From assembly GCA_934486825.1 (NCBI GenBank), contig CAKSQF010000012.1, positions 14,751 to 78,750 of the forward strand: 64,000 nt of DNA, read 5' to 3'. Source of the DNA: an uncultured Eubacteriales bacterium (GTDB lineage Bacteria > Bacillota > Clostridia > Oscillospirales > CAG-272). The notes under the pieces were generated by a model. That model did not search any database, was not told the DNA's origin, and saw only the letters and a list, made by a program, of their open reading frames with translations. The first letter of the stretch is position 1, and each line of letters begins with the position of its first letter. Positions 9,386 through 51,187 of this stretch are shown here, piece by piece. Both the position numbers and the translations under genes were made by a program.

Positions 9386-11452
9386 TTGAAACAGTACAAT
9401 GCAAAGAACATAAGAAACGTTGCGCTTGTCGGTCACGCAAGTGCAGGCAAAACTTCTCTTGCGGAAGCGGCATACTATCTTACCGGAAAAGCCGACAGGC
9501 TCGGCAAGGTGGTTGACGGAACGACTATTTCCGATTTTGACCCCGAGGAGATCAAGCGCAAAAGCTCGGTATCCACATCTCTTATTCCCGTTGAGTGGAA
9601 GGATGTTAAAATAAATCTTCTGGACAGTCCCGGACTTTTCGATTTTGCCGGCGGCGTGAGCGAGGCAATAAGAGCGGCGGGCTCTGCCGTAATCGTCGTA
9701 TCCGGAAAGAGCGGCGTTGCGGTCGGAACCGAAAAGGCGTTTGCGGCGGCATCCAAAAAAGGAATAGCAAAGCTCTTTTTCATAAACAAGCTTGACAGCG
9801 AGCATGCCGATTTCTACAAGGTATTCGAAGAGCTGAAATCGACCTTCGGTCCCATGATCTGCCCGCTGGTTGTCCCCTACGTGGTCGATCACAAGGTAAA
9901 ATCATACATAAATCTGCTTGAATACCGTGCATACGAATACAAAAACGGCAAGGCAACCGAGGTTCCGATGCCCGACATGGGACACAGACTTGATGGTCTG
10001 CGCGCCGCAATTTCCGAAGCCGTCGCCGAAACAAGCGAAGAGCTTATGGAAAAATATTTCGCCGGCGAGGAATTCACTCCCGACGAGCTTATCATGGGTA
10101 TCGCAAACGGCGTGCGCAGAGGCGAGATAGCACCGGTATTCTGCGGCGCAACGCAGATACTCGAAGGCGTCGATCAACTTCTGAACGGACTTATCTGGCT
10201 TGCTCCGTGGGCTGAAACGGTTGCGGGCGAGACCGGTCACGACATGGCGGGCGAGCCGGTAAAGCTGACCGTCAATGAGGAGGCGCAGCCTGTCGTTACC
10301 GTATTCAAGACGGTCGTTGACCCGTTCGTCGGAAAGCTCCAGTATTTCAAGGTAATAAGCGGCAAGGTCACATCCGACACGGCTCTGCTGAACGTCCGCA
10401 CCGGAACAATAGAAAAATTCAACAAAATAATGTATGTCTGCGGCAAAAAACAGGAAAATGCGCAATGCATCGTTGCGGGTGACATAGGCGCGGTGGCGAA
10501 GCTTGCGTCCACATCGACAGGCGACACGCTCTGTTCGCCTTCAAGACCTATATCGCTTCCCGGAGTCGCGTTTGACCGTCCCTGCCTTTCGATGGCTGTC
10601 TTCCCGGTCAACAAGGGGGACGAAGAGAAAATCTTTGCCGGACTTGCGCGTCTTGCCGAGGAGGATCCGACGATATCCTTTGAAACCAACCGCGAAACGA
10701 GAGAAACCGTGCTTTCCGGACTCGGCGAGCAGCATCTTGACGTCATTGTATCCAAGCTGAAATCCAAATTCGGTGTCGATGTCACGCTTGCCGTGCCGAA
10801 GGTTGCTTACAGAGAGACAATACGCAAAAAGGTACAGGTACAGGGACGTCACAAGAAGCAGTCGGGCGGTCGCGGACAGTTCGGCGACATCTGGGTGGAA
10901 TTTGAGCCCTGCGACTCGGAAGAAATGATATTCGACGAAAGAGTTGTCGGCGGAGCGGTTCCGAAGAACTACTTCCCCGCAGTCGAAAAGGGACTTCGCG
11001 AATCGGCTCAGAAGGGCGTGCTCGCCGGATTCCCGATGGTCGGGCTGAAGGCAACCCTTTACGACGGCTCATATCATCCGGTTGACTCTTCCGAAATGGC
11101 ATTCAAGCTGGCGGCAAACATAGCATACAAAAACGGTATACCGCAGGCGGCTCCGGTTCTTCTTGAGCCGATCGGCAGACTCTGCGCATATGTACCCTCC
11201 TACAATACCGGCGACATCATGGGCGACATCACCAAGCGTCGCGGCAGAGTTATCGGAATGAATCCCGCCGAGGACAATCTGACCTGCATTGAGGCAGAGG
11301 TCCCGATTGCCGAGACAGGCGATTTTGCGACTATGCTCCGCTCGACGACTCAGGGCAGAGGTCATTACACCATCGATTTCGCGCGCTACGAGGAAGCTCC
11401 CGCGGCGGTTGCGCAAAAGGTAACCGAAGCATACAAATCGGACGAAGAATAA
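9386..11452 (+). CDS. Elongation factor G paralogue (EF-G2 type)
   Basis: 688 aa with a TTG start and AAAGGGG RBS. G1 is GHASAGKT, G3 is DSPGLFDF (no His after PG) and G4 is NKLD. The length fits a full five-domain EF-G. Confidence 0.8.
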   Translation: MKQYNAKNIRNVALVGHASAGKTSLAEAAYYLTGKADRLGKVVDGTTISDFDPEEIKRKSSVSTSLIPVEWKDVKINLLDSPGLFDFAGGVSEAIRAAGSAVIVVSGKSGVAVGTEKAFAAASKKGIAKLFFINKLDSEHADFYKVFEELKSTFGPMICPLVVPYVVDHKVKSYINLLEYRAYEYKNGKATEVPMPDMGHRLDGLRAAISEAVAETSEELMEKYFAGEEFTPDELIMGIANGVRRGEIAPVFCGATQILEGVDQLLNGLIWLAPWAETVAGETGHDMAGEPVKLTVNEEAQPVVTVFKTVVDPFVGKLQYFKVISGKVTSDTALLNVRTGTIEKFNKIMYVCGKKQENAQCIVAGDIGAVAKLASTSTGDTLCSPSRPISLPGVAFDRPCLSMAVFPVNKGDEEKIFAGLARLAEEDPTISFETNRETRETVLSGLGEQHLDVIVSKLKSKFGVDVTLAVPKVAYRETIRKKVQVQGRHKKQSGGRGQFGDIWVEFEPCDSEEMIFDERVVGGAVPKNYFPAVEKGLRESAQKGVLAGFPMVGLKATLYDGSYHPVDSSEMAFKLAANIAYKNGIPQAAPVLLEPIGRLCAYVPSYNTGDIMGDITKRRGRVIGMNPAEDNLTCIEAEVPIAETGDFATMLRSTTQGRGHYTIDFARYEEAPAAVAQKVTEAYKSDEE

Positions 11453-11457
11453 AAACC

Positions 11458-11493
11458 GAAACGGGTCTGCATTTTGCGGACCCGTTTCTTCGT
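11458..11493 (+). terminator. Hairpin after the EF-G-like gene
   Basis: GAAACGGGTC ... GACCCGTTTC stem with a weak T tail (TTCTTCG). Confidence 0.5.
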
Positions 11494-11571
11494 CGGTATC
11501 GTCATTTTTTCATTCTGCACCGAAACATGCGCCTTGCGGCAAAAATTTTTGTTTATTTTTTCGTCAATCAC

Positions 11572-11600
11572 TTGACAAACGTGACATCCGATGTTATACT
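11572..11600 (+). promoter_or_regulatory. Promoter of the GH2 tandem
   Basis: TTGACA-17 bp-TATACT. Confidence 0.6.
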
Positions 11601-11670
11601 TGCGGTGAAAATCGGCGAAATTTTCGCCGGACATATTGCATACTTTGCACATATTTAAGGAGAACTTTAT

Positions 11671-13383
11671 ATGAACATTCCGAAGACAGAATATCCGCGT
11701 CCGTCTCTCGTGCGTGACAACTGGATAAACTTAAACGGACAGTGGCAGTTCGAAATCGATCATGCCAACACCGGAATGGAACGCAAATTCTGGGAGCGCG
11801 AGACGCTTTCGGACAAAATTCTCGTTCCGTATGCACCCGAATCTGTACTCTCCGGCATAGGATATACCGATTTTATGCTGGCGGTCTGGTACAGACGCGA
11901 ATTTGACCTGCCCGCAGAGCCGTCGGACGGCAGAATACTCTTCCATATCGACGCCTGCGACTACCGCACCGTTGTCTTCATCAACGGCAAAAAGGTCGGT
12001 GAGCATGTCGGCGGCTACACTCCGTTTGCCTTCGATATCACCGATGTCGCGGTCCGCGGAGGAAAGAACACGGTTGTTGTATATGCATACGACAACACAA
12101 GAGATCCGCTCCAGCCTACCGGCAAGCAGGACAATGTCTACGACAATGTACACAAGTGCTGGTACTACACCAGAACGACCGGCATATGGCAGACGGTATG
12201 GATCGAATTTGTTCCGGATACATACATCGAAAAAATCAAGCTGACCCCCGACGTTGACAACAAAAAACTCAGAGTCAGGGTAAGCGCAAACAAGGTCGTC
12301 ACCGACGGCACTCTTTCGGTCAGAACAAGCTACAAGGGCAAAGATACCGGAAGCGCAGAGCTTAAATTCGACGGCAGATATGCCGAATTTGACCTTGATA
12401 TAACCGAACTGCATCTCTGGAATCCGGGTGCGCCCGAGATCTACGACATAGAGTTCACACTCAACTCGGACAGAGTCAAAAGTTATTTCGCAATGCGCAA
12501 GGTTGCAATCAAAGGCTATGCGATCGAAATAAACGACGTTCCGGTCTTCCAGCGTCTGGTTCTCGATCAGGGCTACTGCGGCGAAGGGCTGTACACGGCT
12601 CCTTCTTCCGATTACTACAAGCGCGAGATCGAATACGCGCTTGAAGCCGGCTTCAACGGTGCGCGTATGCACGAAAAGATTTTTGAGCCTTACTATCTTT
12701 ACTGGGCGGACATGCTCGGATATCTGCTCTGGGGTGAGTATCCGAACTACCACTGGAACGATTCGGATCCCGCGGCACTTGATTCGATGCTTCCCGAATG
12801 GATCGAAGCGGTCGAACGCGACTACAACCATCCGTCGATAATCGGCTGGTGTCCCGGAAACGAGGTCACATCCTACCGTATCGACAGAATCTACATTTTC
12901 CTTTACGATGTAACCCGTGCGATAGACCCCATGCGTCCGATAATCGACACATCGGGTTGGATACACGCAAAAACGGACATCTACGATTCGCATGACTATA
13001 CCGGTGACCCGGTCGAATTTGCAAAGCATTACGAATCGCTCAACACAGGTGTCGGTGATGTCTACATCAGCTACGGCTGGGGCAAGGTTCCCCCCGTACC
13101 CTATGAGGGACAGCCCTACTTTGTCTCCGAATTCGGCGCGTCGGCAGTCAACATTGAAAATCACGAGCCGACAGAGGAGGAATTCGAACGCTTCTACAAA
13201 ACCTTCAAGGAGCATGTGGACATTCTCATGGACAACAAGAGAATGTGCGCGTTCTGCTACTGCCAGTGGTGCGACTCCGCCGAGCATGAATGTAACGGCT
13301 TCATCACACAGGACAGACGCAAGAAATACGACTTCGCACGTACCCGCGAAATAATGGGACGCAAAGCGGAAATAGAGAAATAA
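11671..13383 (+). CDS. GH2-family glycosidase (beta-glucuronidase/galactosidase-like), copy 1
   Basis: 570 aa. GH2 sugar-binding N-domain (GGYTPFAFDITD), TIM-barrel motifs GFNGARMHEKIFEP and WCPGNE, AAGGAG RBS. Confidence 0.75.
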   Translation: MNIPKTEYPRPSLVRDNWINLNGQWQFEIDHANTGMERKFWERETLSDKILVPYAPESVLSGIGYTDFMLAVWYRREFDLPAEPSDGRILFHIDACDYRTVVFINGKKVGEHVGGYTPFAFDITDVAVRGGKNTVVVYAYDNTRDPLQPTGKQDNVYDNVHKCWYYTRTTGIWQTVWIEFVPDTYIEKIKLTPDVDNKKLRVRVSANKVVTDGTLSVRTSYKGKDTGSAELKFDGRYAEFDLDITELHLWNPGAPEIYDIEFTLNSDRVKSYFAMRKVAIKGYAIEINDVPVFQRLVLDQGYCGEGLYTAPSSDYYKREIEYALEAGFNGARMHEKIFEPYYLYWADMLGYLLWGEYPNYHWNDSDPAALDSMLPEWIEAVERDYNHPSIIGWCPGNEVTSYRIDRIYIFLYDVTRAIDPMRPIIDTSGWIHAKTDIYDSHDYTGDPVEFAKHYESLNTGVGDVYISYGWGKVPPVPYEGQPYFVSEFGASAVNIENHEPTEEEFERFYKTFKEHVDILMDNKRMCAFCYCQWCDSAEHECNGFITQDRRKKYDFARTREIMGRKAEIEK

Positions 13384-21283: not shown

Positions 21284-21359
21284 GCACCCTTAGCTCAGTT
21301 GGTAGAGCAACTGACTCTTAATCAGTGGGTCCGGGGTTCGAGTCCCCGAGGGTGCACCA
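21284..21359 (+). tRNA. tRNA-Lys (anticodon CTT)
   Basis: Manual cloverleaf: acceptor GCACCCT/AGGGTGC, anticodon loop CTCTTAA, T-loop TTCGAGT, encoded CCA. Confidence 0.9.
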
Positions 21360-32638: not shown

Positions 32639-32827
32639 TAGAAAGCGCAAAAAAACGGATTCTCCCGGCAAAATATCGCCGCCCCGCCGTCGTTCAAAGT
32701 TCTCATATGTGCAAAAGTACAAAAAAATATGGAGAATAAGAGACTTTTTTTGTCTTGAATAATGATTGAATTGAGTGTAGACTGAAATCGTCTTTTAATA
32801 CCTAATAAAATAAGGAAGGGTTTGAGA

Positions 32828-33679
32828 ATGAAAAATCTTCTTAAAACACTGATCTGTGTTTCGCTTCTTGCCGCAATGTCGGTATCGATGCTTGCATGCG
32901 GCGGCGACAGCCAGACAACAACAACCGCTGCTGCGGGAGTTACCACAACTCCGGCGACAACCACAACCGTACCCAAGCAGACGACCACTGTTCCCGCGCA
33001 GACAACCACTGTTCCGGATACGACAAACGTACCCGACAAGCCCAAGGATGAGCCCTCCTCTTATTATGAAGAGGATGAGATTTATGTCATCGACGGCGTG
33101 AAGCTTGTCGCTTCAAACGGCTACTGCGAATTTGCGGAAGACGGCGGTCTTGAGGCAAAGTACGAGAGAGTTGACCTCGTTGCATGGGACACAAACTTCA
33201 CCTACGGCAAGATCACGGTTACAATGTCGGGCAAACCCGAGAGCGAAGACAACGACAACGGACTCTTCCTCAATATAGCAAGCGGCAGCATGAAGGACAG
33301 AGTTCTTTCCGAGTCGTTCAACGAGGGCGATCAGTATGATCTCAAAACATCGGGCGGATATTACATGTTCTTCATCGGAGACAAGACATCCGGTCTCAGA
33401 CTTGCAAAAGCCAATGTTCCCACTCTTGACAAGACATGGGTAGAGTGTGCGATCGTTGACGGAACAAGAAATGTCAAAGAGCTTGGCTATCAGCACGGCG
33501 ACAAGTTCACGATCACAATCGAAGTTCTTCCCGGCGGCATTTTCAAGGGCTACTACGGCGATACCCTCATGTGGACATATACCGACGAGGCTCCCCTTCA
33601 GGGAACCGGTATCGGCGTAAGACTTGAGCATGTCGGCGTTAAGCTTTACAGCATCAAGATTGAGCCGGCAGAAGGCTGA
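32828..33679 (+). CDS. Secreted lipoprotein with a Thr-rich linker and a jelly-roll (DUF1080/LamG-like) C-domain
   Basis: Lipobox MLACGG. Linker with TTTVP(K/A)Q repeats. C-terminal GTGIGVRLEHVGVKLYSIKIE resembles DUF1080-type ends. Confidence 0.65.
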   Translation: MKNLLKTLICVSLLAAMSVSMLACGGDSQTTTTAAAGVTTTPATTTTVPKQTTTVPAQTTTVPDTTNVPDKPKDEPSSYYEEDEIYVIDGVKLVASNGYCEFAEDGGLEAKYERVDLVAWDTNFTYGKITVTMSGKPESEDNDNGLFLNIASGSMKDRVLSESFNEGDQYDLKTSGGYYMFFIGDKTSGLRLAKANVPTLDKTWVECAIVDGTRNVKELGYQHGDKFTITIEVLPGGIFKGYYGDTLMWTYTDEAPLQGTGIGVRLEHVGVKLYSIKIEPAEG

Positions 33680-35071: not shown

Positions 35072-35101
35072 AAAACAAAAAACTCCGGAAGGACAATGCT
35101 T

Positions 35102-35647
35102 ATGAAATATCTTATAGCCTCTGATATACACGGCTCGGCGAAATACTGCCGTCTGCTTGTCGAAAGCTTCGAAAAAGAAAAGGCAGACCGCCTGCTTCTG
35201 CTCGGCGATCTGCTCTATCACGGTCCGCGCAACGATCTGCCCGACGGATACGCTCCGAAGGAGGTCATAGCTCTTCTCAATCCGCTTGCGGACAGGATCA
35301 CGGCGGTCAGAGGAAACTGCGACGCCGAGGTTGATCAGATGGTGCTTGATTTTCCGATAACCGCCGATTACGCGATCATAAACGCGGGAGAGCACACGAT
35401 ATTTGCGACGCACGGACATCTGTACACTCCCGATTCGGTAAAAAACCTCAGAGAGGGGGACGTTTTCCTCTACGGACACACCCACATCCCCGACAGCAGT
35501 CTGAAAAACGGGATTTTATGCATCAATCCGGGGTCTGTGTCGATTCCGAAGGCGGGCAGTGCGCACGGATATATCATATTTGACGGGAACGGGTTCATCC
35601 GCAAGGAACTTGAAAGCGGGAAAATTCTCGAAACTATCGGTCTTTGA
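35102..35647 (+). CDS. YfcE/MJ0936-family metallophosphoesterase
   Basis: LIASDIHGS, LLLGDLLYHGPRN, VRGNCD and GHTH motifs. ATG at 35102 is 8-9 nt after GGAAGGA. Confidence 0.8.
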   Translation: MKYLIASDIHGSAKYCRLLVESFEKEKADRLLLLGDLLYHGPRNDLPDGYAPKEVIALLNPLADRITAVRGNCDAEVDQMVLDFPITADYAIINAGEHTIFATHGHLYTPDSVKNLREGDVFLYGHTHIPDSSLKNGILCINPGSVSIPKAGSAHGYIIFDGNGFIRKELESGKILETIGL

Positions 35648-36338
35648 TCGCAAGCGTCCGCAGATACGCCTTCCTTTCATCCGGTATGCGATAGCTTTCG
35701 ATCGCTTTTCTTATCGTTTTGTTGTGCACCCATTTATCAAGACGGCGCTCTTCAAGAAAGACCGCCGCACTACCGTACTGCTTTGCAAGCGCGGTGGCGA
35801 ACAGCCACGCAATCATCATATTGACGTAATATTCATCCGATCTGACAGCAGCAGCCTTTTCAAGGATCGCGGGCGAAAAGCGGTCGTCAAGATAATATCT
35901 CATCAGTATACCCAGTCCGAAGCGGATGGTGTAGGTGTGTTCAGACGCTGTCCACAGCTCCGCTTTTTCAAGCAGGCGGTCGGAATATTCCTTCTTTCCG
36001 AACACCATCGGAGAGAGCTGATCGCAGGTTGCCCAGTTATCGACAAAAGGAAGAAAACGGTCGCAGGCGGCGATCGCACTGTCAAAATCCTTTATCAGCG
36101 ATATTATAAAAGCATGCAGATTTTGCTCTTCAAAATATTTATGCGGCAGATCGGCGAGAAAATCGTCGGTCTGCCCTTTTTTTGCAAGCTCCGAGGCAAA
36201 GGCTCTGACTATCGGCGTGCTCACTCCGATCACCCTCTCCCGATCGACGGTCGGCATAAGCTTTGCCTGAAAACTGCCGTATTCCGGGTCGGCGGCTTCA
36301 AAAAGCCGCTCTCTTATCATTTCGATCTCATTATTCAT
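35634..36338 (-). CDS. AlkD-like HEAT-repeat protein (DNA alkylation repair enzyme family)
   Basis: Start at MNNEIEMIRERLFEAADPEYGSFQAKLMPT with a GAAGGA RBS. Family recognised from the N-terminal FQ.K..P pattern and helical repeats. The upstream part of the 343-aa ORF overlaps the S-component gene and is rejected. Confidence 0.65.
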   Translation of the reverse strand: MNNEIEMIRERLFEAADPEYGSFQAKLMPTVDRERVIGVSTPIVRAFASELAKKGQTDDFLADLPHKYFEEQNLHAFIISLIKDFDSAIAACDRFLPFVDNWATCDQLSPMVFGKKEYSDRLLEKAELWTASEHTYTIRFGLGILMRYYLDDRFSPAILEKAAAVRSDEYYVNMMIAWLFATALAKQYGSAAVFLEERRLDKWVHNKTIRKAIESYRIPDERKAYLRTLAIKDR

Positions 36339-36349
36339 AAAAATTCCTT

Positions 36350-37036
36350 CTAAATCCTGTATCGCATTTTTATCCGCCCGAGCTTTTTGATAAACGAGGG
36401 TGCAAGAGCATAAAGGAAAAGTGCGTTTGAAAAAGCATAAAGCAGGGTAAACGGAAGCGCAGTCACCGTTGCCGTAAGGTAAAGAGCAGGAGAAAAGCTC
36501 CCGCTGTACCACACGACCGTCCACACATCCATTATGAGTGAGAAAACAAATCCGGACAGTCCGCCGAAGCCGACGAGCAGAACACGGTTTTTTTCGAGAA
36601 CCGACGAAAAAAGTCCGCCGAGCAAGCCGATCGTTCCCCATGCAATCATGCGGAAGGGGGTCCACGGTCCCTGCCCGAAGAAAAAATCGGAGACAAATGC
36701 CGAAAATGAGCCGACAAGAAATCCGGTCTGCGGTCCGAGAGTCACTCCGCTGATAATTGCAAGTGCCGCCGTCGGCTTGACAATCGGAACAAATCTGCCG
36801 ATGACCGCAAGTGCGGTCATTACGGCGGACAGGGCGAGCCTTCTTGCTCCCCTGCTCTTCGAATCGTATCCGCAGGCAAAGAGCAACAGCGAAAATGCGG
36901 CGACAAGCGTCGATATCAGCAGATATTTTCGCCCGTCTGCGGCAAAAAGCGATACCGCGAGCAGTGTCGGCATTACGACGAGCAGTAAAACAAGTCCGAG
37001 CACCCGCCTTGTGCGGAAATTACGGATGAGGATCAT
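36350..37036 (-). CDS. ECF transporter substrate-specific (S) component, CbrT-like by context
   Basis: 228 aa with ~6 TM segments and a GQGPWTPFRMIAWG motif. ATGA overlap with the ATPase gene. The operon is under a cobalamin riboswitch. Confidence 0.75.
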   Translation of the reverse strand: MILIRNFRTRRVLGLVLLLVVMPTLLAVSLFAADGRKYLLISTLVAAFSLLLFACGYDSKSRGARRLALSAVMTALAVIGRFVPIVKPTAALAIISGVTLGPQTGFLVGSFSAFVSDFFFGQGPWTPFRMIAWGTIGLLGGLFSSVLEKNRVLLVGFGGLSGFVFSLIMDVWTVVWYSGSFSPALYLTATVTALPFTLLYAFSNALFLYALAPSFIKKLGRIKMRYRI

Positions 37037-38682
37037 TCCGCACTTCCTCCTTCCGGTTCACGCAGACGCGCACATATCTCTCCGACCGTCGTACAGCCGT
37101 CAAGAACACCATGCGACATTGCCGCCGCCGCAGTCGTATAGAATCTGCTGTCGGTGAGAAAGTCGGTCCTGTCCGACCGCGATATTATCCTGCCGTCGAA
37201 AAAGAGCGCACAGCTGTCGGCGGTACAGGCGGCAAATTCGGCGTCATGCGTGACGCAGACGATTGTCATATCATTGCCGTCGCGGAGAGCTTTGAGCGCT
37301 TTTGCAAGCGTCAGCACCGATGCGCGGTCAATCCCCTTTGTCGGCTCGTCGAGCAGGAGAAGCGACGGCTTTTTTGCCGTGACCTTGGCGAGCGCGACAA
37401 GCTGCTGCTCACCCCCCGACAGGTCATACGGATGGCGGTCGTAAAAAGGCGACAGATCAAACGGAAAAGATTTTTCGTCGAATCCCACCTCGGCAAGCTC
37501 CTCTCTTACGCTGTCAAAGACAAAAAGCTCTCTGACATCCTGCGGCATGAGCGAAACGAACGAGGCGAAAAGACTCCCGTTTTTATAATCCCGATGCTTT
37601 TTTCCAAACAGCCGCACACTGCCCGCATAGCAGGGGAGAAGTCCCGCGGCAACCGACAGAAGTGTCGATTTTCCGCATCCGTTGCCGCCGAAAAGACAGA
37701 ATATCTCTCCCCTGTACACCTCAAGTGACAGATCGCGCAGAACATCGGGCAGTTCCCTCCGGTATCTGAAGCAGACATTTTTCAAAGAAAGTGCGATTTC
37801 CCCGCTTTTTACGGGTTTTGCGGATTTTTCGGACACCCGCGACCCCGACGGATGATATTCCGAAATCAGAAAGCTCCTGCCATCCCTTACCGTAAGCGGG
37901 CATCTGCCGCCGTCCCCTTTTTTCAGTTCGTTGTACATACGCACGGGTGCGGGCATCAGTGACAATATCTCCGGCATCCCCGAAAGTCTGCCGCACACCT
38001 CGGACGGCTTGCCGTTTGCGACAACTCTGCCGCCGTCAAGTATAATTATACGATCGGCAAAGGGGAGAAGGCGGTCAAGTCTGTGTTCGGACAGTATGAC
38101 CGTAACTCCGTTTTCGCGATTCAGTCTGACCAGCGTATCGGTAAACGCCGTCGCGGCTATCGGATCGAGCCTTGCCGTCGGCTCATCGACAATAAGAAGC
38201 TCGGGATCACCCGCCATAACCGACGCAAGGCAGAGAAGCTGTTTCTGCCCGCCCGAAAGCTCGCAGACTCTTTTGCCCATTATATCCGAAAATCCGAAAC
38301 AGCCCGCAGTTTCCGCGACCGTTTTTTCAAGCCTTGCGGGATCGGGTCCCATATTCGACAGCGCAAACGATATCTCGTGTCTTACCGTATCGGTGACGAT
38401 CTGCGCCTCGGGATACTGCATGACATACCCGATTGAAAAAGCCGCGCTCTTACCGTCAAGCTCTTCGATCGGCGTGTTTTTGAACAGAATACTACCCGAT
38501 TTCTCCCCGCTCGGGGCAACGGAACTCTTTATAAGCGAAAAAAGAGTGGATTTGCCGCTTCCGGTCGCGCCGCAGACAAGGACAAATTCACCCTCGGAAA
38601 CCGAAAAACCGACCGAGTCAAGCGCGCCACGATCGCTTCCGGCATAGCGGAAGCTCAGATTTTCGACATCAAGTATTTCCAT
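37033..38682 (-). CDS. ECF transporter fused duplicated ATPase (EcfA-EcfA')
   Basis: Two ABC cassettes: Walker A GATGSGKST and GGNGCGKST, signatures LSGGQKQ and LSGGEQQ. ATG at 38682 is 9 nt after GGAGG. Confidence 0.85.
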   Translation of the reverse strand: MEILDVENLSFRYAGSDRGALDSVGFSVSEGEFVLVCGATGSGKSTLFSLIKSSVAPSGEKSGSILFKNTPIEELDGKSAAFSIGYVMQYPEAQIVTDTVRHEISFALSNMGPDPARLEKTVAETAGCFGFSDIMGKRVCELSGGQKQLLCLASVMAGDPELLIVDEPTARLDPIAATAFTDTLVRLNRENGVTVILSEHRLDRLLPFADRIIILDGGRVVANGKPSEVCGRLSGMPEILSLMPAPVRMYNELKKGDGGRCPLTVRDGRSFLISEYHPSGSRVSEKSAKPVKSGEIALSLKNVCFRYRRELPDVLRDLSLEVYRGEIFCLFGGNGCGKSTLLSVAAGLLPCYAGSVRLFGKKHRDYKNGSLFASFVSLMPQDVRELFVFDSVREELAEVGFDEKSFPFDLSPFYDRHPYDLSGGEQQLVALAKVTAKKPSLLLLDEPTKGIDRASVLTLAKALKALRDGNDMTIVCVTHDAEFAACTADSCALFFDGRIISRSDRTDFLTDSRFYTTAAAAMSHGVLDGCTTVGEICARLREPEGGSAE

Positions 38683-39536
38683 CTGCACGCACCTCCGATC
38701 TCATAAAAAACAGGCAAAAACGAAATTGCCGCACAGCATGCGGTCGCCGTATAAAAAAGCGGTCCGTCGTGCGGAAGGCTGACCGTCGGATAAAAGGTCG
38801 CCGAAAACACCCCTCCGAAGCCTCCGACCGCAACGCAGGCGGTCGCCGCAACAGTCAGCGATATGATAACGGCGTCTCCGATATGCATCGGGAAACGCTC
38901 GGCGAAGGTCGGTCTGCCGATGCCGTAGCCGCGCGCACTCATGCTGTCTGCGGTCGTTACCCCGTTTTCGATCGCCCATGATGCGACCGACATGAATATC
39001 CGGAGCTTTGCGCGGAAAAAATCAATGAGATTGCCGTCCTTATACAGCCCGAGCGTTTTCTGTGCGTCGGAAGTCCGCCTGAACTGCTCTCTGAAAAGCG
39101 GGACAAATCTCACCGTCATCGAAAAAAGCAGCGACAGTCTGGGCGACAGTCTCCGAAGCAGATAGGCTGTCCGTTCCGCGTCGGTTATTTTTGAAAAAAC
39201 GGCGAAACGGCAGACCGCCGAAAGGATCACCGCCGCCGAGGTCATCCCGTAAAGCAGATCCTCAAGCGTTATGCGCATATCGTTGACAAAAAAAAGAACT
39301 GTCGCGCCGTTGTGCGAAAAAATCGGATTTATTGCCGACAAAATGCAGAAAAACGCCGCTGTTCCGACTGTTTTCCCGACAATAGCGGCGCGGTCTGTGT
39401 AAAAAAGCAGGTGCAGATATGCTCCCGCAAACGATATTCCCGCAACGCGCGGGTCAAAAATAAAAACAGGTATGCAGATCGCCGCCGCGTAATAGACAAA
39501 AAGCGCGGTCGGGCAACGGTCCTCAAAGCTTTTCAC
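38655..39536 (-). CDS. ECF transporter transmembrane (T) component, CbiQ family
   Basis: 293 aa multi-TM with RFVPLFREQFRRTSDAQKTLG and SMSARGYG motifs. GTG start 6 nt after GGGAGG. Confidence 0.8.
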   Translation of the reverse strand: MKSFEDRCPTALFVYYAAAICIPVFIFDPRVAGISFAGAYLHLLFYTDRAAIVGKTVGTAAFFCILSAINPIFSHNGATVLFFVNDMRITLEDLLYGMTSAAVILSAVCRFAVFSKITDAERTAYLLRRLSPRLSLLFSMTVRFVPLFREQFRRTSDAQKTLGLYKDGNLIDFFRAKLRIFMSVASWAIENGVTTADSMSARGYGIGRPTFAERFPMHIGDAVIISLTVAATACVAVGGFGGVFSATFYPTVSLPHDGPLFYTATACCAAISFLPVFYEIGGACRWKYLMSKI

Positions 39537-41179
39537 TGCGTACCTCCCCCGTCATCGGCGTAAACGCGGCTCACATCCCTGCCGAAATCCAGGGTATAAT
39601 GCCATTCGACAAGATCGCCGTCCGACAGAACAAATTCGTCGCATCCGACCGACGGCATAACGCCGTTTACAAAATAGACCCAGCCCGACAGATCGCCGTA
39701 AACGTGATCCCTTATAAACGCGATCGACAAAACATATCCGTTTCTTTCGTCGAACTGTATTTTTCCCCGCTTTGCGGCTTCAACAAGCAGATCAAGCACG
39801 GTTTCTCCCTCGTGTATATCGATCGCCATGTCTTTTATAATTACTCCGTCCTTCGGAACAGCATCGTCGCCGCTGTCGGCAATAACGTCGCAGCGTATCG
39901 AAATCCTTACCGTTCCGAAGCCCTTTTCGGCGGCATCCGTTTCCGAATAATAGCCACCCGGAGATCTGATGTCGGTAAAGGCGGTCGCCGCGATTATCAG
40001 CGCCGCGGCAAGGATCAGCGGCAGAATATGCTTCGGTCCCCTTTTTCCTTTGACATAAAGTATCAGGCAGACCGCCGCCGCAAGAAGTGCGACCGACACG
40101 CCGACCACGAGCTTGTATATCGGTACCTTATGACCGGAATCGGTCTTTCCGCCGTCCGTGACCGTCGGTGCTTTTTCGGTCGTCGGCTGGCGCACTGTCG
40201 TCGGAGCCTTGGTTGTCACACGGTCGTCGGTGACCGGAGGCGGCTCGGGAGCGCCGTCCTCATACATGTAAAACGTTCCCCCGTCGGTGTGGAAAAGCTT
40301 TGCGGAAACAAGCGCGCAGAGCGCCTGAACGGTCGCCGTTTTGTTTGAAGCTCCGTCCGGGAAATGCGCAAATCCGCCGTCTGCCGTCCGATAGGAGAGA
40401 AGCCTGTCGGTCATCGGCAGGAAGCTGTCGGAGCTGTCGGGATCGACCCCGATTGCGTGAAGCGCGATCATCACCTGAGCAAGGCTCTCGCAGTTTTCCT
40501 TTCCGAACGAGGCAAATCCGCCGTTTTCAAGCTGTCTTGCCGACAAAAATGCCGCCGCTTTGTCGATCGCATCCGAAACATCGCTTCTGTTTTCCCTGTG
40601 CGGTGCGATCGCCTGCATCACCATAGCGGTGGTATCGACATCGGGATTTGTCCCGATGACCGCCCAGCCGCCCGACGGAAGTGCCGCCCCGAGAATTTCG
40701 TCAAGCAGGTCGGACGCCGTATATGCCTCCGAGCCTGCACCGTTATTTATCAGATGAAGGGCAAAAACAAGGCTCATTATTCCCTGCCTGCCCGCGGTTC
40801 TGTCAACCGCATCCCCGACTTTTTCGGGTCTGCCCGAAAAGATGAGTGCAAGGCTTACGCGCTGTATCGCAACCGCCCCTTCGATCTCCCCGTCCGAAAG
40901 CCTTTTTTCAAGCTTTTCGGCATACGCCGAAAGGTCGATTCCGAAATGAGCTCTCGAAAGAGCGATTGCATACCAGTCTGTCGAAAGTCCCGCGCCGTCG
41001 GCTATCTTTTCGGACAGTCCGGAAAGAGAGGAAGCCGAAAGCTCTTCGGCGATTCTGTCAACGGTCGTTGCGATTTCGCTGTCGTAATCGGTGATTTCAG
41101 CCGCACTCCGCGCCATGGGTGCGACGATAAGACAGACTGCCGCCGCGACTGCGGACAAAAATCCGACATACTTTTTCAT
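39533..41179 (-). CDS. Membrane-tethered transcobalamin-like protein (prenyltransferase-like alpha/alpha barrel + TM hairpin + DUF4430)
   Basis: Signal peptide. GGW/NGGF/DGGF repeats (residues ~150-290). Thr/Pro linker. Two TM helices. C-terminal GWVYFVNG...PSVGCDEFVLSDGDLVEWHY. ATG at 41179 is 8 nt after GGGAGGG. Confidence 0.7.
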   Translation of the reverse strand: MKKYVGFLSAVAAAVCLIVAPMARSAAEITDYDSEIATTVDRIAEELSASSLSGLSEKIADGAGLSTDWYAIALSRAHFGIDLSAYAEKLEKRLSDGEIEGAVAIQRVSLALIFSGRPEKVGDAVDRTAGRQGIMSLVFALHLINNGAGSEAYTASDLLDEILGAALPSGGWAVIGTNPDVDTTAMVMQAIAPHRENRSDVSDAIDKAAAFLSARQLENGGFASFGKENCESLAQVMIALHAIGVDPDSSDSFLPMTDRLLSYRTADGGFAHFPDGASNKTATVQALCALVSAKLFHTDGGTFYMYEDGAPEPPPVTDDRVTTKAPTTVRQPTTEKAPTVTDGGKTDSGHKVPIYKLVVGVSVALLAAAVCLILYVKGKRGPKHILPLILAAALIIAATAFTDIRSPGGYYSETDAAEKGFGTVRISIRCDVIADSGDDAVPKDGVIIKDMAIDIHEGETVLDLLVEAAKRGKIQFDERNGYVLSIAFIRDHVYGDLSGWVYFVNGVMPSVGCDEFVLSDGDLVEWHYTLDFGRDVSRVYADDGGGTQ

Positions 41180-41229
41180 TATCATTCCCTCCCATTCCGT
41201 AATTTCCGTAATTATACCGACCCTTCGGT

Positions 41230-42009
41230 TCAGTCCTCCCTGCTGCGGCGTCTGCCGACCGCAACGGCGGTTCCCGCAAACATGAGCGCAATGAAGGTGA
41301 TAACAAACGGAATAAATGTCATATCGCCGGTCTTGGGTACATCGGTCACGCCGACAAGTGCCACCGGCGGAACGATAGCGCTCCCCTCAACCGATGCGCT
41401 TATGACATGATTGCCCGCTTTAAGCGACGCAAGCTCGACCTTGCCCGATTCGTCGGTTTTCAGCTCCGTCGCCTTGCCGTCAATATAAATAACCGCACCT
41501 GCGACAGGAGAAACGACGGTATTGTAGTTGTCATCATAGCCGAGCCTGCTCAGCATAAGGGCTACCTTCTCTCCCTCAACGGCGGATACCGTAATCTTAT
41601 CGAAATAGCAGTATGCGTCCGAGAAGTTCTGCGTATCGGTGTAGATGTAAGCGGCAACATAGTCGCCGTTCTTAACCTCGTCGAAAAGCCCGGAAGCCGG
41701 GACGTTGTTTACGCAGTAGCCGACATTCGATGTCGAAACGCCCCACAGCTTTGTGATATAACGGCCGTACTGTCCGTCAGCCGTTTCGTATCCGTCCTTT
41801 TTGTACTTTTCGTGTGTAATTACAAGCACGTCGTTGACGGTAAGCTTGCCGTCGCCGTCGGCGTCGGTAAGCGCAACCTTTTCGGCTGACAGCTCAAGCT
41901 TGCCGTTTGCGACCGTAACGTAGACCGACGCTTCGTCGGCAGACAAAGCGGGCATCATCAGTCCGACCGCAATGGCAACAACGGTCAGCAGACAAATAAA
42001 TTTTTTCAT
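41230..42009 (-). CDS. Sortase-anchored surface protein with an N-terminal DUF4430-like domain
   Basis: Signal peptide. VYVTVANG...TVNDVL...YITKLWGV...VKNGDYVAAYIY pattern. C-terminal sorting signal VPKTGD + hydrophobic helix + RRRSRED. Confidence 0.7.
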   Translation of the reverse strand: MKKFICLLTVVAIAVGLMMPALSADEASVYVTVANGKLELSAEKVALTDADGDGKLTVNDVLVITHEKYKKDGYETADGQYGRYITKLWGVSTSNVGYCVNNVPASGLFDEVKNGDYVAAYIYTDTQNFSDAYCYFDKITVSAVEGEKVALMLSRLGYDDNYNTVVSPVAGAVIYIDGKATELKTDESGKVELASLKAGNHVISASVEGSAIVPPVALVGVTDVPKTGDMTFIPFVITFIALMFAGTAVAVGRRRSRED

Positions 42010-42293
42010 GACAGATCATTTCCTTTCTTGTTTTTTTCGGCAAGCCGCCTTGCCCGGGCGGCACGTGCGCGTTTTTCGCGGTTTTTCTCAATGCGGTCGC
42101 CGCTTCTTGCCTCTTTAAGACCCGCCGCTTCAAGTGCGCGCGGCCACGGTCCGAGAAACGCCTTGATAGCGACCACCTCGGCTTCTTCGAAATCCGAACG
42201 CTTCGGAAGACGCGACTCGCCTGATGCCCGGAGCTTTTCCTGCTTTTCGACAAGCAGTCGGGTACAGTCGGCAAAGTCATATTTCTTCTTCAT
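42006..42293 (-). CDS. Small basic protein (95 aa) with an FLGPWPRALEAAGLK motif
   Basis: First ORF after the riboswitch, with an ATGA overlap to the next gene. The motif resembles the homing-endonuclease-associated repeat as I recall it. Lys/Arg-rich tail. Confidence 0.55.
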   Translation of the reverse strand: MKKKYDFADCTRLLVEKQEKLRASGESRLPKRSDFEEAEVVAIKAFLGPWPRALEAAGLKEARSGDRIEKNREKRARAARARRLAEKNKKGNDLS

Positions 42294-42390
42294 TTCCAAA
42301 GTCACAACCCTTCAGTTTCCGAATAAATGCAAAAACGCTTTCTGACGGCATTTTCGGGGTGCCGACAAAAAGCGCAACAATGACAGGCTG

Positions 42391-42621
42391 AAAAAGGCAG
42401 AGACCCCCCTTGTCCGGAGGCTGTGTTTTTTTACAGCCGATCGGTTGCACTTTTCTCTGCCCAAAAATGTCGGACGGCATATATAAAACCGTCACCGAAG
42501 CAGATACGGCAAGTATTCCGACTTACGGGCAGGTTCTGCCCGCTCACGGTAATGGCGGTTGCGTCGGATTTTCACCGATCTTCCCTCTGATCCGACAGCC
42601 TGAGCCGTCGGAACCGTATCC
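42391..42621 (-). promoter_or_regulatory. Cobalamin (B12) riboswitch with putative terminator expression platform
   Basis: Aptamer 42503-42621 (minus strand): P1 GATACGG/CCGTATC, GGTTCC, AGAGGGAAGATCGGTGAAAATCCGA, CGCCATTACCGTGAGC, and B12 box AAGTCGGAATACTTGCC. Downstream, GGCAGAGA (42454-42461) pairs with TCTCTGCC (42396-42403) followed by U5. Confidence 0.85.
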
Positions 42622-42639
42622 GCATATTCGATTTCTGTT

Positions 42640-42668
42640 ATTTTACCACAGACAAAGAGAATTGTCAA
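42640..42668 (-). promoter_or_regulatory. Promoter of the riboswitch-controlled operon
   Basis: Minus strand TTGACA-17 bp-TAAAAT, about 12 nt upstream of the aptamer P1. Confidence 0.65.
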
Positions 42669-42675
42669 TCACCGC

Positions 42676-42709
42676 AAAAAAACTTCCGGCGGTTGCCGGA
42701 AGTTTTTTG
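42676..42709 (-). terminator. Terminator after the GH43-like gene
   Basis: AACTTCCGGC-AACC-GCCGGAAGTT followed by T7 on the minus strand (A/T runs on both sides). Confidence 0.85.
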
Positions 42710-42718
42710 TGATTATAC

Positions 42719-44941
42719 TTACCAGACGGGAGTGATCTTCATCGACTGCACGCCGAAACATTCGCCGGTGACACGCAGTCCCGCACGTCCCGAAACATTG
42801 CCCATCGGGATGTCGTATGAGAAAAGCTCCTTCCCATCGACCGAAACCGCGATCCTCTGCCCCTTTGCGGCAACCGAAACATCGTGCTCAAATCTGCCGC
42901 AATCGTCAAGCGTATAGTTTACGAGTATTTTTTCTCCGTAATTCCATTCGATAAGCGATATGTTTCCGCAACCGATGCGCACCGAATATCCGTAGCCCGC
43001 ACGCGCCGGCTGTGAGCCGAAATAGCTCTCCTTCTGCATCCTGAACATGAACTCACAGCCGCCGGTCGAATTCATGTAACCGGTCATATGAGCGTCGATG
43101 CGGTAGTCGGTCCAGCCGTGTCCGCCGACGTATACAAAACCGTCGTTTTCCGAGCAGGAATAGCCGACCTCCTTGCTTATCATACTGCCGCGACCCTTCC
43201 AGCCGAATATATCGGCGTCATGGCAGAGCCTGCCGTCCTCCACGAGAGTAAGTTTTTCGACGTCCTCAACCTCTGCAAGCTCAAAGCTGTCAATCACAAA
43301 GTCGCATCCCGCTCTGACGACCAGCTTCCCGAGTCCGCCGCAGAGCTTCACCCTGCCGAGCAGGACCTTTGCCGAGCCGTCATGATCGTAGGCGGTCGGT
43401 GCGGCTGCAACCAGCTCTCTGCCGTTTACATCGACTCTCACACCCGCGTCTGCCTGTCTGACATGCGCGCATACCGTGTACAGTCCGTCCGCCTTTACGT
43501 TTATCGGGAAGGTGAAAACGCTTCCTACGGTTGCCTTTACGCAGTAAATATCTCTGCCGTTTTCGATGCATGCAAGCTTTGCGTGATCCTCGATTGCATG
43601 AACCGCATCCATGCGTCCCGGAACCGCCTTTGTGACAAATTTGTCACTGCTTCCGTCCGAATATGACGAAAATCCGACAAATCCGACTGTCGCGTTTTCG
43701 GGAAGGAGCGAAAATCCGATCCTTCCTCCCTTGCAGGACGAGTTCCACTTCAGAAATTCCTGATTGTTGTTGAGCATCAGAAGCATCTTTCCGTCGTGAT
43801 GTCTCGTAAAGCGGTAAGAGTTGTTCGAACGCATTACAATATTGGAAGGAAGTTCGCCGATCGCAAGCACCCTGCCGCCCTCGGTGACCCGCACGGTACG
43901 TCCGTTTACCGCGATCCTGCCCTTGCCGCCCGCATATACAAGCTCAAAATCCTCTCCCTTTGCGTTGACGTTTATCTCCGCCGTATAGAGAGCGGGTGTC
44001 GCCTTTTTCGTAAGCAGCAGTTTTTCGCCGTCCTTTTCGGAGCCTGCAAGCTCATCGGTGCCGCGCACCGAATAATCGGCAAGTGACGGCTTTTCCTGAT
44101 CCCACCATATCGTGTTCGCATACATTCTCGAACCGTTGAAGAAGAGTCTGTCAACATTCATGCTGCGGTGATGCGGTTCTTTGACAAGCTCATACGTGTG
44201 ATATATGATGTAAGCACCGTCCATGTCGGGCGCAAGCGCGCTTGAGCTGTGTCCGAGGGCATGAAAATCGTCGCCGACCTCGGCAAGCACCACCCGGTTC
44301 TTCATGTTGGTATAGCCGGACACGGGTGAACTGTCGGATACCGAGTAGGCAACCTTGTAGCACTTGCTGAGCAGATGGTTGCCCGTATATGTAAGGAAGT
44401 ATTTGCCGCCGTGGCGAAGCACCATCGGACCCTCGGTCCAGCCGTTCAGACAGCTCTCGCCGATCGGCGTTCCGGGCAGATCGACCGTTTTCGGGTCGGA
44501 CATTGTATGAAAATTGATTCCGTTCCCTTCCGCGCGGTAAAAATAGCTTCTGCCGTCGTCGTCGATGAAGAAGGAGCCGTCGATGCGCTGACCGAATCTT
44601 CCGGTGACCTGCTTGTACGGACCCTCGGGCTTCGACGCTTCAAGGATGAAATGCCCGTTTCCGTGCGGAGATGTACACATATAGAATTTGCCCTTGTTGT
44701 AGATGACCTCGGGCGCATAACCGCCGATTATGTCGGGCAGTTTGCACGCAACTCCGAGATATGTCCAGTCAACAAGGTTATCGGAGCGCCAGCAGTGCAG
44801 ATCATGGGTCATTTTCCCCATTGAAAAGAAACCGCCTGCCGAAAAATAAAGATAATACCGTCCGTCGTATCTCATTACAAACGGATCGCCTGTGTTGCCC
44901 GCGTCGGGCGCCTTGAACGGGTTTCTGTACATATTTTCCAT
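42719..44941 (-). CDS. GH43-like beta-propeller glycosidase with C-terminal beta-sandwich domains
   Basis: N-terminus MENMYRNPFKAPDAGNTGDPFVMRYDGRYYLYFS, with later GYAPEVIYNKGKFYM and IDGSFFIDDDG (propeller Asp/Glu motifs). ATG at 44941 preferred over the GTG at 44971. Confidence 0.7.
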   Translation of the reverse strand: MENMYRNPFKAPDAGNTGDPFVMRYDGRYYLYFSAGGFFSMGKMTHDLHCWRSDNLVDWTYLGVACKLPDIIGGYAPEVIYNKGKFYMCTSPHGNGHFILEASKPEGPYKQVTGRFGQRIDGSFFIDDDGRSYFYRAEGNGINFHTMSDPKTVDLPGTPIGESCLNGWTEGPMVLRHGGKYFLTYTGNHLLSKCYKVAYSVSDSSPVSGYTNMKNRVVLAEVGDDFHALGHSSSALAPDMDGAYIIYHTYELVKEPHHRSMNVDRLFFNGSRMYANTIWWDQEKPSLADYSVRGTDELAGSEKDGEKLLLTKKATPALYTAEINVNAKGEDFELVYAGGKGRIAVNGRTVRVTEGGRVLAIGELPSNIVMRSNNSYRFTRHHDGKMLLMLNNNQEFLKWNSSCKGGRIGFSLLPENATVGFVGFSSYSDGSSDKFVTKAVPGRMDAVHAIEDHAKLACIENGRDIYCVKATVGSVFTFPINVKADGLYTVCAHVRQADAGVRVDVNGRELVAAAPTAYDHDGSAKVLLGRVKLCGGLGKLVVRAGCDFVIDSFELAEVEDVEKLTLVEDGRLCHDADIFGWKGRGSMISKEVGYSCSENDGFVYVGGHGWTDYRIDAHMTGYMNSTGGCEFMFRMQKESYFGSQPARAGYGYSVRIGCGNISLIEWNYGEKILVNYTLDDCGRFEHDVSVAAKGQRIAVSVDGKELFSYDIPMGNVSGRAGLRVTGECFGVQSMKITPVW

Positions 44942-50587: not shown

Positions 50588-50663
50588 GGAAGTTTAGCTC
50601 AGCTGGGAGAGCATCTGCCCTACAAGCAGAGGGTCATAGGTTCGAGCCCTATAACTTCCACCA
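50588..50663 (+). tRNA. tRNA-Val (anticodon TAC)
   Basis: Manual cloverleaf: acceptor GGAAGTT/AACTTCC, anticodon loop CCTACAA (note C at position 33), encoded CCA. Confidence 0.8.
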
Positions 50664-50689
50664 ACAGTTCCGGCAATAGTCGGAGCTTT

Positions 50690-50766
50690 GGCCTGGTAGC
50701 TCAGTTGGTTAGAGCGCTAGCCTGTCACGCTAGAGGTCGTGGGTTCGAGCCCCATCCGGGTCGCCA
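50690..50766 (+). tRNA. tRNA-Asp (anticodon GTC)
   Basis: Acceptor GGCCTGG/CCGGGTC with two G-T pairs, anticodon loop CTGTCAC, T-loop TTCGAGC, encoded CCA. Confidence 0.85.
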
Positions 50767-50797
50767 ACGACCGACGCAGAAGCGTCGGTCGCTATTT

Positions 50798-50873
50798 GCC
50801 TCTGTAGCTCAGTTGGTAGAGCGAGGGACTGAAAATCCCTGTGTCGTTGGTTCGATTCCGACCGGAGGCACCA
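50798..50873 (+). tRNA. tRNA-Phe (anticodon GAA)
   Basis: Acceptor GCCTCTG/CGGAGGC, anticodon loop CTGAAAA, T-loop TTCGATT, encoded CCA. Confidence 0.9.
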
Positions 50874-50947
50874 ATCCCGAGAGGGGTTGATGAGGACTTT
50901 GGACACGAGTCCGACAACCCGCCGAAAGTTGTAAAATATCGGCATCC

Positions 50948-51023
50948 GCGGATTTAGCTCATTTGGTAGAGCGCCACCTTGCCAAGGTGGAGGTGGCGGG
51001 TTCGAGCCCCGTAATCCGCTCCA
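50948..51023 (+). tRNA. tRNA-Gly (anticodon GCC)
   Basis: Acceptor GCGGATT/AATCCGC, anticodon stem CCACC/GGTGG with loop TTGCCAA, encoded CCA. Confidence 0.9.
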
Positions 51024-51113
51024 AAAAAGGAAGTCCATGGCAAAGGCGCAGGAAGAGAAAGCCGTACTGAGCCGTGGATTTTTTCATAGAACGCCGTCGT
51101 AAAGACGGCGGAC

Positions 51114-51187
51114 GGCGCCATAGCCAAGCGGTAAGGCAGAGGTCTGCAAAACCTTTATCCCCGGTCCGATTCCGGGTGGCGCCTCCA
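51114..51187 (+). tRNA. tRNA-Cys (anticodon GCA)
   Basis: Acceptor GGCGCCA/TGGCGCC, anticodon loop CTGCAAA, T-arm CCCGG-TCCGATT-CCGGG (unusual C at position 55), encoded CCA. Confidence 0.8.

Follow-up and report, generated by a model that had tools for sequence, protein, structure and literature searches.

Secreted bacterial relatives of transcobalamin were first linked to the scavenging of vitamin B12 on computational grounds, when Burroughs, Balaji, Iyer and Aravind (2007, PMC1796856) defined the SLBB superfamily and included in it a transcobalamin-like clade. According to the passages of that paper considered here, the bacterial members of this clade carry signal peptides and are secreted or anchored to the Gram-positive surface; SLBB domains are also found fused to alpha/alpha toroids, with the toroid at the N-terminal side in some proteins, and a second paralogous SLBB protein is often encoded in the same operon. 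The same passages report CbiO and CbiQ, ATPase and T genes of ECF (energy-coupling factor) systems, as neighbours of the transcobalamin-like genes, note that key enzymes of B12 biosynthesis are usually missing from the genomes of the hosts, predict B12 scavenging, and propose that the animal B12 carriers were acquired from low-GC Gram-positives. The concept of B12-scavenging surface transcobalamin-like proteins encoded in CbiO/CbiQ operons is therefore, on these passages, not new. Here we describe an operon of this type in a 64,000-nucleotide stretch of DNA from an uncultured Eubacteriales bacterium (contig CAKSQF010000012.1, positions 14,751 to 78,750; the whole stretch is referred to as the window), where seven open reading frames (ORFs) on the minus strand lie behind a promoter and a cobalamin riboswitch (35634-42668). 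Sequence comparisons and structure models lead us to regard it, with good confidence, as a B12-riboswitch-controlled system of Clostridia for the scavenging and import of corrinoids (vitamin B12/cobinamide).

The cassette fits the 2007 account, as far as the passages considered go, in that it combines a protein with a toroid and an SLBB domain (g3), a second surface protein (g2) and ECF genes. That account was purely computational, and it dates from before ECF S components and CbrT were recognised; relative to the same passages, the window adds a transmembrane hairpin between the two domains of g3, the g2 family, statistics on the riboswitch association, and a small basic protein, g1. A further likeness is to the ECF-like locus lsa1836-1840 of Lactobacillus sakei, which encodes an S component, ATPases, a T component and two extracellular proteins modelled on the alpha and beta parts of transcobalamin (bioRxiv 10.1101/864751). 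The first-pass annotation of the window, made by a model from the DNA letters, had held that an accessory layer of this kind was not experimentally characterised in Firmicutes; this stands for corrinoid binding, but the 2007 prediction and the 2019 study of L. sakei had both been missed.

The operon begins with a sigma-70-type promoter (42640-42668, minus strand) consisting of TTGACA, a 17-nt spacer with a TG extension, and TAAAAT. It agrees with the consensus at 11 of 12 positions and is the top-scoring promoter-like site within 35400-42800, an interval in which the overall count of such sites equals the chance expectation. The upstream GH43 gene ends in a hairpin and T-run at approximately 42703-42677, with the promoter directly downstream, and the operon therefore has a promoter of its own. 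The aptamer of the cobalamin riboswitch follows (42491-42633, minus strand), matching Rfam family RF00174 over its full length (model positions 1-189) and scoring 55.8 bits where the gathering score is 31.5 (E=3.7e-11). The leader beyond it (42327-42462, minus strand), the putative expression platform and a candidate terminator/antiterminator region, contains two hairpins that are each followed by a U-run. Hairpin 1 spans 42462-42394, and hairpin 2 spans 42375-42335 and is followed by UUUUGCAUUU; the latter folds with -21.9 kcal/mol (z=-3.6), a value equalled by none of 200 shuffles, and the fold of the full leader offers alternative pairing between the two hairpin regions. On this model the most likely way for B12 to switch the operon off, and a plausible one, would be transcription termination within the leader.

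The seven genes behind the riboswitch are joined by ATGA-type overlaps or by gaps of no more than 44 nt. Genes g1 and g2 overlap in an ATGA, g2 and g3 are separated by the 44-nt gap, g3 and the EcfT gene overlap by 4 nt, the EcfT and EcfA-A' genes by 28-34 nt, and the EcfA-A' and S-component genes by 4 nt, with 11 nt between the S-component gene and an AlkD-like gene at the end. The consensus promoter, the B12 riboswitch and the row of seven co-directional genes with overlaps or short gaps had all been described in the first-pass annotation, and the description is upheld. The searches with hidden Markov models that it had proposed match g3 to DUF4430 and to cyclase/prenyltransferase repeats, g4 to CbiQ, g5 twice to ABC_tran, g6 to ECF S-component families and g7 to DNA_alkylation.

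The transporter is encoded by g4 to g6. EcfT (g4; 38655-39536, minus strand) is a T component of the CbiQ family (PF02361, E=7e-9), whose match to TIGR02454 scores below the cut-off. The fused EcfA-EcfA' (g5; 37033-38688, minus strand, with alternative starts at 38682 and 38688) contains two ABC_tran domains (E=1e-51), and it matches ECF_ATPase_1 and ECF_ATPase_2 with scores (about 290 bits) that stay below the equivalog cut-offs because the two ATPases are fused. The S component (g6; 36350-37036, minus strand) has an N-terminal extension of about 60 residues. A single-sequence search of the Protein Data Bank (PDB) finds CbrT of Lactobacillus delbrueckii (6fnp_A) as its best match (E=4e-6). 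A profile built from 21 orthologues aligns to the same chain from residue 7 to 176 of 182 with E=1.7e-14, and 4hzu_S, which ranks second among the solved S components, reaches E=1.2e-3. The comparison covers solved S-component structures, Pfam and NCBIfam having no CbrT-specific model, and within that set sequence similarity places the protein in the CbrT (cobalamin) family, closer than to any other solved S component, in agreement with the CbrT-type S component invoked in the first-pass annotation. Overlapping genes at one site supply EcfT, both ABC ATPase domains and the S component, and the transporter is accordingly of the dedicated (group I) ECF type.

The same genes might be taken for an ECF transporter of cobalt or nickel (CbiMNQO-like) that feeds B12 biosynthesis under the control of a B12 riboswitch. 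B12 riboswitches do control cobalt uptake in B12 producers, and the names given to the T and A components by Pfam and NCBIfam (CbiQ, CbiO) refer to 'cobalt transport'; these names, however, are applied to the T and A subunits of ECF transporters in general, and the accessory proteins of the operon resemble corrinoid carriers. Because neither CbiM nor CbiN is encoded in the operon and the S component is CbrT-like, we reject this reading as highly improbable.

Gene g3 (39533-41185, minus strand) encodes a transcobalamin-like protein of 550 amino acids. Pfam identifies DUF4430 at residues 460-531 (E=1.4e-13, 51.5 bits against a threshold of 23.8) and squalene-cyclase/prenyltransferase-type repeats (SQHop_cyclase_C, E=4.9e-10). 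In the AlphaFold2 model, computed with 30 homologues (predicted local distance difference test, pLDDT, 80.6), a signal peptide is followed by an alpha/alpha toroid (residues ~30-310), a disordered linker, two transmembrane helices (356-378 and 384-403) and a beta-grasp DUF4430/SLBB domain (~420-540). The loop between the two helices, KGKRGPKH, is positively charged and would lie inside the cell, and the toroid and the beta domain are therefore both predicted to be extracellular. When the model is compared with the PDB by Foldseek, the top nine matches are haptocorrin, transcobalamin and intrinsic factor structures, ahead of the terpenoid cyclases; the alignments with 4kki, 8ixu, 2pmv, 2bb5 and 4zrp extend over 506-562 columns and include both domains in the same order (E 2e-6 to 8e-5). 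Template-modelling scores (TM-scores) against the B12-carrier structures, normalised to the target, are 0.30-0.50, and the beta domain compared with that of transcobalamin (5no0) reaches 0.71 with a root-mean-square deviation of 2.7. As judged from the model, g3 is a homologue of transcobalamin, intrinsic factor and haptocorrin at the level of fold, over both domains.

This link to the B12 carriers is one of fold and architecture only, because sequence alone finds only cyclases: Pfam Cobalamin_bind gives no match to g3 at E<=0.01, and neither sequence nor profile searches with g3 return the transcobalamin, intrinsic factor or haptocorrin chains of the PDB at E<=10. A weak match to HmuS (E=0.11) aligned to the transmembrane region and was dismissed. 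The cyclase motif DxDDTA is degenerate in g3, where it reads DVDTTAM (residues 182-188, approximately 40622-40642, minus strand), the family consensus being DVDVTAM, with D184, T186 and M188 invariant across the family. Other invariant positions of g3 include H144, N148, W502, N507 and Y530. The sequence hints that the toroid descended from a cyclase-like ancestor and that one aspartate of the motif was lost.

The second surface protein, g2 (41230-42009, minus strand), is a secreted protein of 259 amino acids for which domain searches and an AlphaFold2 model (pLDDT 89.6) indicate a signal peptide, an N-terminal beta-grasp-like domain, a beta-sandwich of the prealbumin/CarboxypepD_reg type and a sorting signal. 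The N-terminal domain includes a DxDGDG-type loop, similar to those of EF-hands and dockerins, that is invariant in the homologues. At the C-terminus, VPKTGD is followed by 23 hydrophobic residues, a transmembrane segment, and by RRRSRED, which is the pattern of a sortase (LPXTG-type) substrate; PxTG is kept in most homologues, Pfam Gram_pos_anchor is matched in 8 of 40, and we infer that g2 is anchored by a sortase.

Both surface proteins had been taken in the first-pass annotation to be of the DUF4430 type. For g3 this agrees with the Pfam match, but none of 40 g2 homologues matches Pfam DUF4430 at E<=1, and what is found for g2 is a remote similarity. The profile of its N-terminal domain can be aligned colinearly, over 92-100 columns, to the DUF4430 profile of g3, with the secondary-structure elements paired one by one; the score is 20.3, and the highest value in 30 column shuffles is 15.9. 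The two domains have a common beta-beta-alpha-hairpin-beta-beta topology. It was necessary to compare individual domains because the profile-profile comparison of full-length g2 with g3 gave a spurious match of 13 columns. Foldseek with the whole g2 model returned generic Ig-like tandem-domain matches alone, driven by the C-terminal sandwich. It is probable, though not demonstrated, that g2 is a divergent SLBB protein.

A pattern scan in which each GTDB species was represented by one genome recovered relatives of g3 from at least 526 genomes, and the best 80 loci were kept for comparison. All of these loci that are classified below the phylum level belong to Clostridia, and the hosts, from gut and rumen, include Oscillospiraceae, Ruminococcus (among them the cultured R. 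flavefaciens, with the cassette at loci L022, L025 and L037), Lachnospiraceae and Acutalibacteraceae. As determined by tblastn, about 70 of the 80 loci have the gene order g2-g3-EcfT-EcfAA'-S, with or without g1 in front; those that do not show the full order are mostly cut by contig ends or contain g2-g3 alone, and g2 is always directly upstream of g3. A scan with Rfam found a cobalamin-class riboswitch upstream in 8 of 13 loci. A home-built covariance model (R1), made from six Rfam-detected elements and the riboswitch of the window, detects elements directly upstream and on the operon strand in 65 of the 80 loci. Co-occurrence of these genes behind B12 riboswitches had also been put forward as a check in the first-pass annotation, and both the riboswitch and the gene order are seen to recur.

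Some loci depart from the common arrangement. Seven loci (L039, L040, L054, L058, L072, L076 and L080) have two riboswitches, one in front of g2-g3 and the other in front of g1-EcfT-AA'-S; in L080, for example, a riboswitch at 8889-9035 is followed by g2 (9227) and g3 (10001-11632), and a second one at 11644-11797 by g1 (11950) and ecfT (12122). Four others (L001, L002, L065 and L069) have a riboswitch, g2 and g3, with or without g1, and no adjoining ECF genes, the next ORFs in L001 being on the opposite strand, so that the transporter would be encoded elsewhere or shared. The metagenomic locus L163 (217-5521) encodes g1, a g2-like protein, a shorter g3-like protein of 426 amino acids, two permeases of the FecCD family, which is the family that includes BtuC, and an ATPase of 250 amino acids, with no ECF genes; the surface module is therefore not bound to one type of transporter. 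At L091 (661-1881), and likewise at L090 (520-1233), a g2-like N-terminal domain plus sandwich is encoded (hhalign probability 76%), and the L091 protein, which stands behind a second riboswitch-like element, continues, up to the end of the contig, into what seems to be the first part of an alpha/alpha toroid. The split and FecCD variants indicate that B12 controls two units, the surface module and the transporter, which can be separated from each other. A system for capture and import would lead one to expect this, and it does not fit easily with heme as the substrate. Locus L021 also contains an unrelated thiamine pyrophosphate (TPP) riboswitch (8693-8795, minus strand), on the strand opposite to the cassette and a few kb downstream of it.

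The first gene of the operon, g1 (42006-42305, minus strand, with possible starts at ATG 42293 and GTG 42305), encodes a basic, cytoplasmic protein of about 95 amino acids. It is clearly coding: differences among family members number 5741 at third codon positions, against 3186 at first and 2643 at second positions. The match to Pfam HNH_repeat (PF18780) is borderline, its 25.4 bits lying below the gathering score of 26, many close homologues have a precomputed PF18780 match, and some are named 'homing endonuclease associated repeat-containing protein' by NCBI. The family contains at least 2514 clusters at 90% identity, with proteins of about 95-105 amino acids that have an invariant GPWPRALE core and an Arg/Lys-rich C-terminal tail, and g1 is the best-conserved product of the operon, with 55-75% identity where g3 has 33-48%. 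A profile match to the N-terminal segment of the spliceosomal protein PRP17 (shared FLGPW, E=0.0015) is uninformative and probably due to chance.

In a separate sample of 80 metagenomic loci anchored on g1, 69 could be evaluated for an upstream riboswitch. A cobalamin riboswitch is located 110-420 nt upstream of g1 and on the same strand in 61 of these, with g1 as the first ORF, and the other eight have no Rfam riboswitch of any family. By loose criteria, a hairpin and T-run about 40 nt before g1 is present in all 50 riboswitch-g1 spacers taken from other loci, compared with 28 of 50 shuffled ones. The genes behind g1 are mostly g2-g3-ECF, and cobT-cobU-cobS-cobC, which serve the assembly of the nucleotide loop, other DUF4430 proteins and DUF2284 are also found there. 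The association of the g1 family with cobalamin riboswitches, ahead of uptake genes or of cobT/U/S genes, is new here; an incomplete literature search found no publication on the family. We entertain, tentatively, the possibility that g1 is an unrecognised factor working with cobalamin riboswitches, either as a nucleic-acid-binding regulator or as a factor for the hand-over or chaperoning of corrinoids, although the regulator and the cytoplasmic corrinoid factor are both guesses. If it were true, a g1 made only under B12 limitation would extend the cis control of the riboswitch into a trans regulon. The association is a separate and inexpensive lead, and it is the most novel aspect of the locus.

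Several points weigh against the interpretation of the operon as a corrinoid scavenging and import system. The riboswitch is undetected in 15 of the 80 loci, in some of them because the contig ends. No sortase signature (TLxTC) is present in the 64-kb window, so that the sortase-anchored g2 of the first-pass annotation retains its signal (VPKTG, hydrophobic segment, RRRSR) and lacks a sortase gene alongside. The hhalign probability for the relationship between the g2 N-terminal domain and DUF4430 is 5%, rising to 30% when AlphaFold2 secondary structure is included, which is a weak link. The alpha domain of g3 has its best sequence matches among squalene-hopene and drimenyl-diphosphate cyclases, and its sequence is terpenoid-cyclase-like and falls outside Pfam Cobalamin_bind. 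A literature search, which was incomplete, found no report of B12 binding or transport for members of the cassette, and the sole experimental study of a homologous locus, that of L. sakei, argued for heme.

The cyclase matches are what would be expected if only the ECF-CbrT transporter handled B12, and g2 and g3 were co-regulated with it and had some other job, for which adhesion, glycan or isoprenoid binding, and a terpenoid-type enzyme activity are candidates. The prealbumin/Ig-like domain of g2 and its EF-hand/dockerin-like DxDGDG loop, both typical of adhesins, would suit such a role, and the ECF-CbrT of L. delbrueckii functions without accessory proteins (PMC5997447). Against this, g2-g3 is strictly syntenic with the transporter or stands behind a B12 riboswitch of its own, the fold search with full-length g3 puts B12 carriers above cyclases, and the cyclase motif is degenerate both in the window (DVDTTA) and in the family consensus (DVDVTA). 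Furthermore, DUF4430/SLBB is, in the passages of PMC1796856 considered here, the B12-contacting beta domain of transcobalamin. A role for g2 and g3 apart from B12 is thus unlikely in our view.

The other reading to be weighed is import of heme, or of some different non-corrin tetrapyrrole, by the cassette, as was proposed for L. sakei lsa1836-1840, where docking and genetics were read as heme uptake (bioRxiv 10.1101/864751). The two loci, compared here by description, differ in that L. sakei has one protein for the alpha-like part and another for the beta-like part, whereas in the window they form one polypeptide split by the transmembrane hairpin; and while its authors claim heme and the word 'riboswitch' is absent from their text, the type of cassette present in the window is consistently behind a B12 riboswitch, as the 65 of 80 loci attest. 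Moreover, g1 also heads cobT-cobU-cobS operons elsewhere, there are no heme-related genes near the operon in the window, and the nearest characterised S component, CbrT, is experimentally proven to carry cobalamin (Cbl) and cobinamide (Cbi), with hemin not competing (Santos et al. 2018, PMC5997447). We consider heme import to be quite unlikely for this cassette. The interpretation given in the first-pass annotation is, taken as a whole, partly supported: its B12-repressed capture and uptake of corrinoids is supported by the riboswitch, the CbrT family assignment and the fold of g3.

What the analysis shows is the riboswitch, what the genes encode, how the folds are related and that the synteny is conserved; these findings would be accommodated by a corrinoid system that operates as follows. 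When B12 is plentiful, the cobalamin riboswitch would shut the operon off, presumably by termination. When it is scarce, EcfT, EcfA-A' and the CbrT-family S component would be made, and the S component would carry the corrinoid across the membrane. Tethered in the membrane, g3 would clamp the corrinoid between its outward-facing toroid and beta domain, one on either side of the transmembrane hairpin, and g2, anchored to the wall or the membrane, would probably extend the capture into the wall layer or dock to g3. The cytoplasmic g1, which generally travels with cobalamin riboswitches, would be made alongside when B12 is scarce. That g3 and g2 bind corrinoids and hand them over to the S component is a prediction of this scheme, and in the specific relay from wall to membrane, by way of g2 and g3 to the transporter, we place less confidence than in the overall assignment of the operon.

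The last of the seven ORFs, g7 (35634-36338, minus strand), is an AlkD-like HEAT-repeat gene (DNA_alkylation, PF08713, E=1.5e-13, 51.4 bits) that is probably co-transcribed with the operon in the window. It had been included in the system by the first-pass annotation, and here it is rejected as a component: tblastn places a homologue near the cassette in just 2 of the 80 loci, convergent in L049 and far upstream (8 kb) in L061, and in none of the 80 directly after the S-component gene on the same strand, and for this reason we regard it as a local neighbour. Its 3' end overlaps that of a convergent metallophosphoesterase gene (35096-35647, plus strand) by 14 nt (35634-35647). Further away, an ORF at 32822-33679 (plus strand, 285 amino acids) likely encodes another surface protein, with signal/lipoprotein-like features at the N-terminus (LACGG) and a long linker rich in Thr and Pro (TTTPATTTTVPKQTTTVPAQTTTVP). 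Five tRNA genes are clustered inside 600 nt at 50588-51184 (plus strand), and a lone tRNA gene is found at 21284-21356.

Among characterised transporters, the closest to the one described here is ECF-CbrT of L. delbrueckii (6FNP), with which it has in common a homologous S component and the ECF architecture; the L. delbrueckii protein, however, relies on a shared ECF module of the general kind (group II), and no transcobalamin-like partners are described for it in PMC5997447. The window, by contrast, encodes a dedicated ECF module with A fused to A', and its S component has the additional N-terminal extension. Corrinoids are contested among gut and rumen bacteria, and their capture at the surface is understood in Bacteroides and not in Gram-positive Clostridia. 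In Bacteroides, BtuG and BtuH, encoded behind B12 riboswitches, capture corrinoids at the surface for the transporter BtuB. The analogy with the window is a functional one, in that surface accessory proteins would pass corrinoids to a transporter, but BtuG is a beta-propeller lipoprotein of an outer-membrane TonB system, unrelated in fold and without homology to the window proteins.

The occurrence of the cassette in so many species-level genomes makes it a target for the study of bacterial transcobalamin-like proteins coupled to ECF-CbrT. Corrinoid-binding data would validate the 2007 prediction and resolve the disagreement between B12 and heme that arises from L. sakei, and they would also bear on the proposed Gram-positive origin of the animal B12 carriers. 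It is with these carriers, the mammalian transcobalamin, intrinsic factor and haptocorrin, that g3 has its architecture in common, an alpha6/alpha6 toroid followed by a beta (SLBB) domain, although it differs from them in having no match at the sequence level and in being tethered to the membrane by a hairpin inserted in the linker between the two domains.

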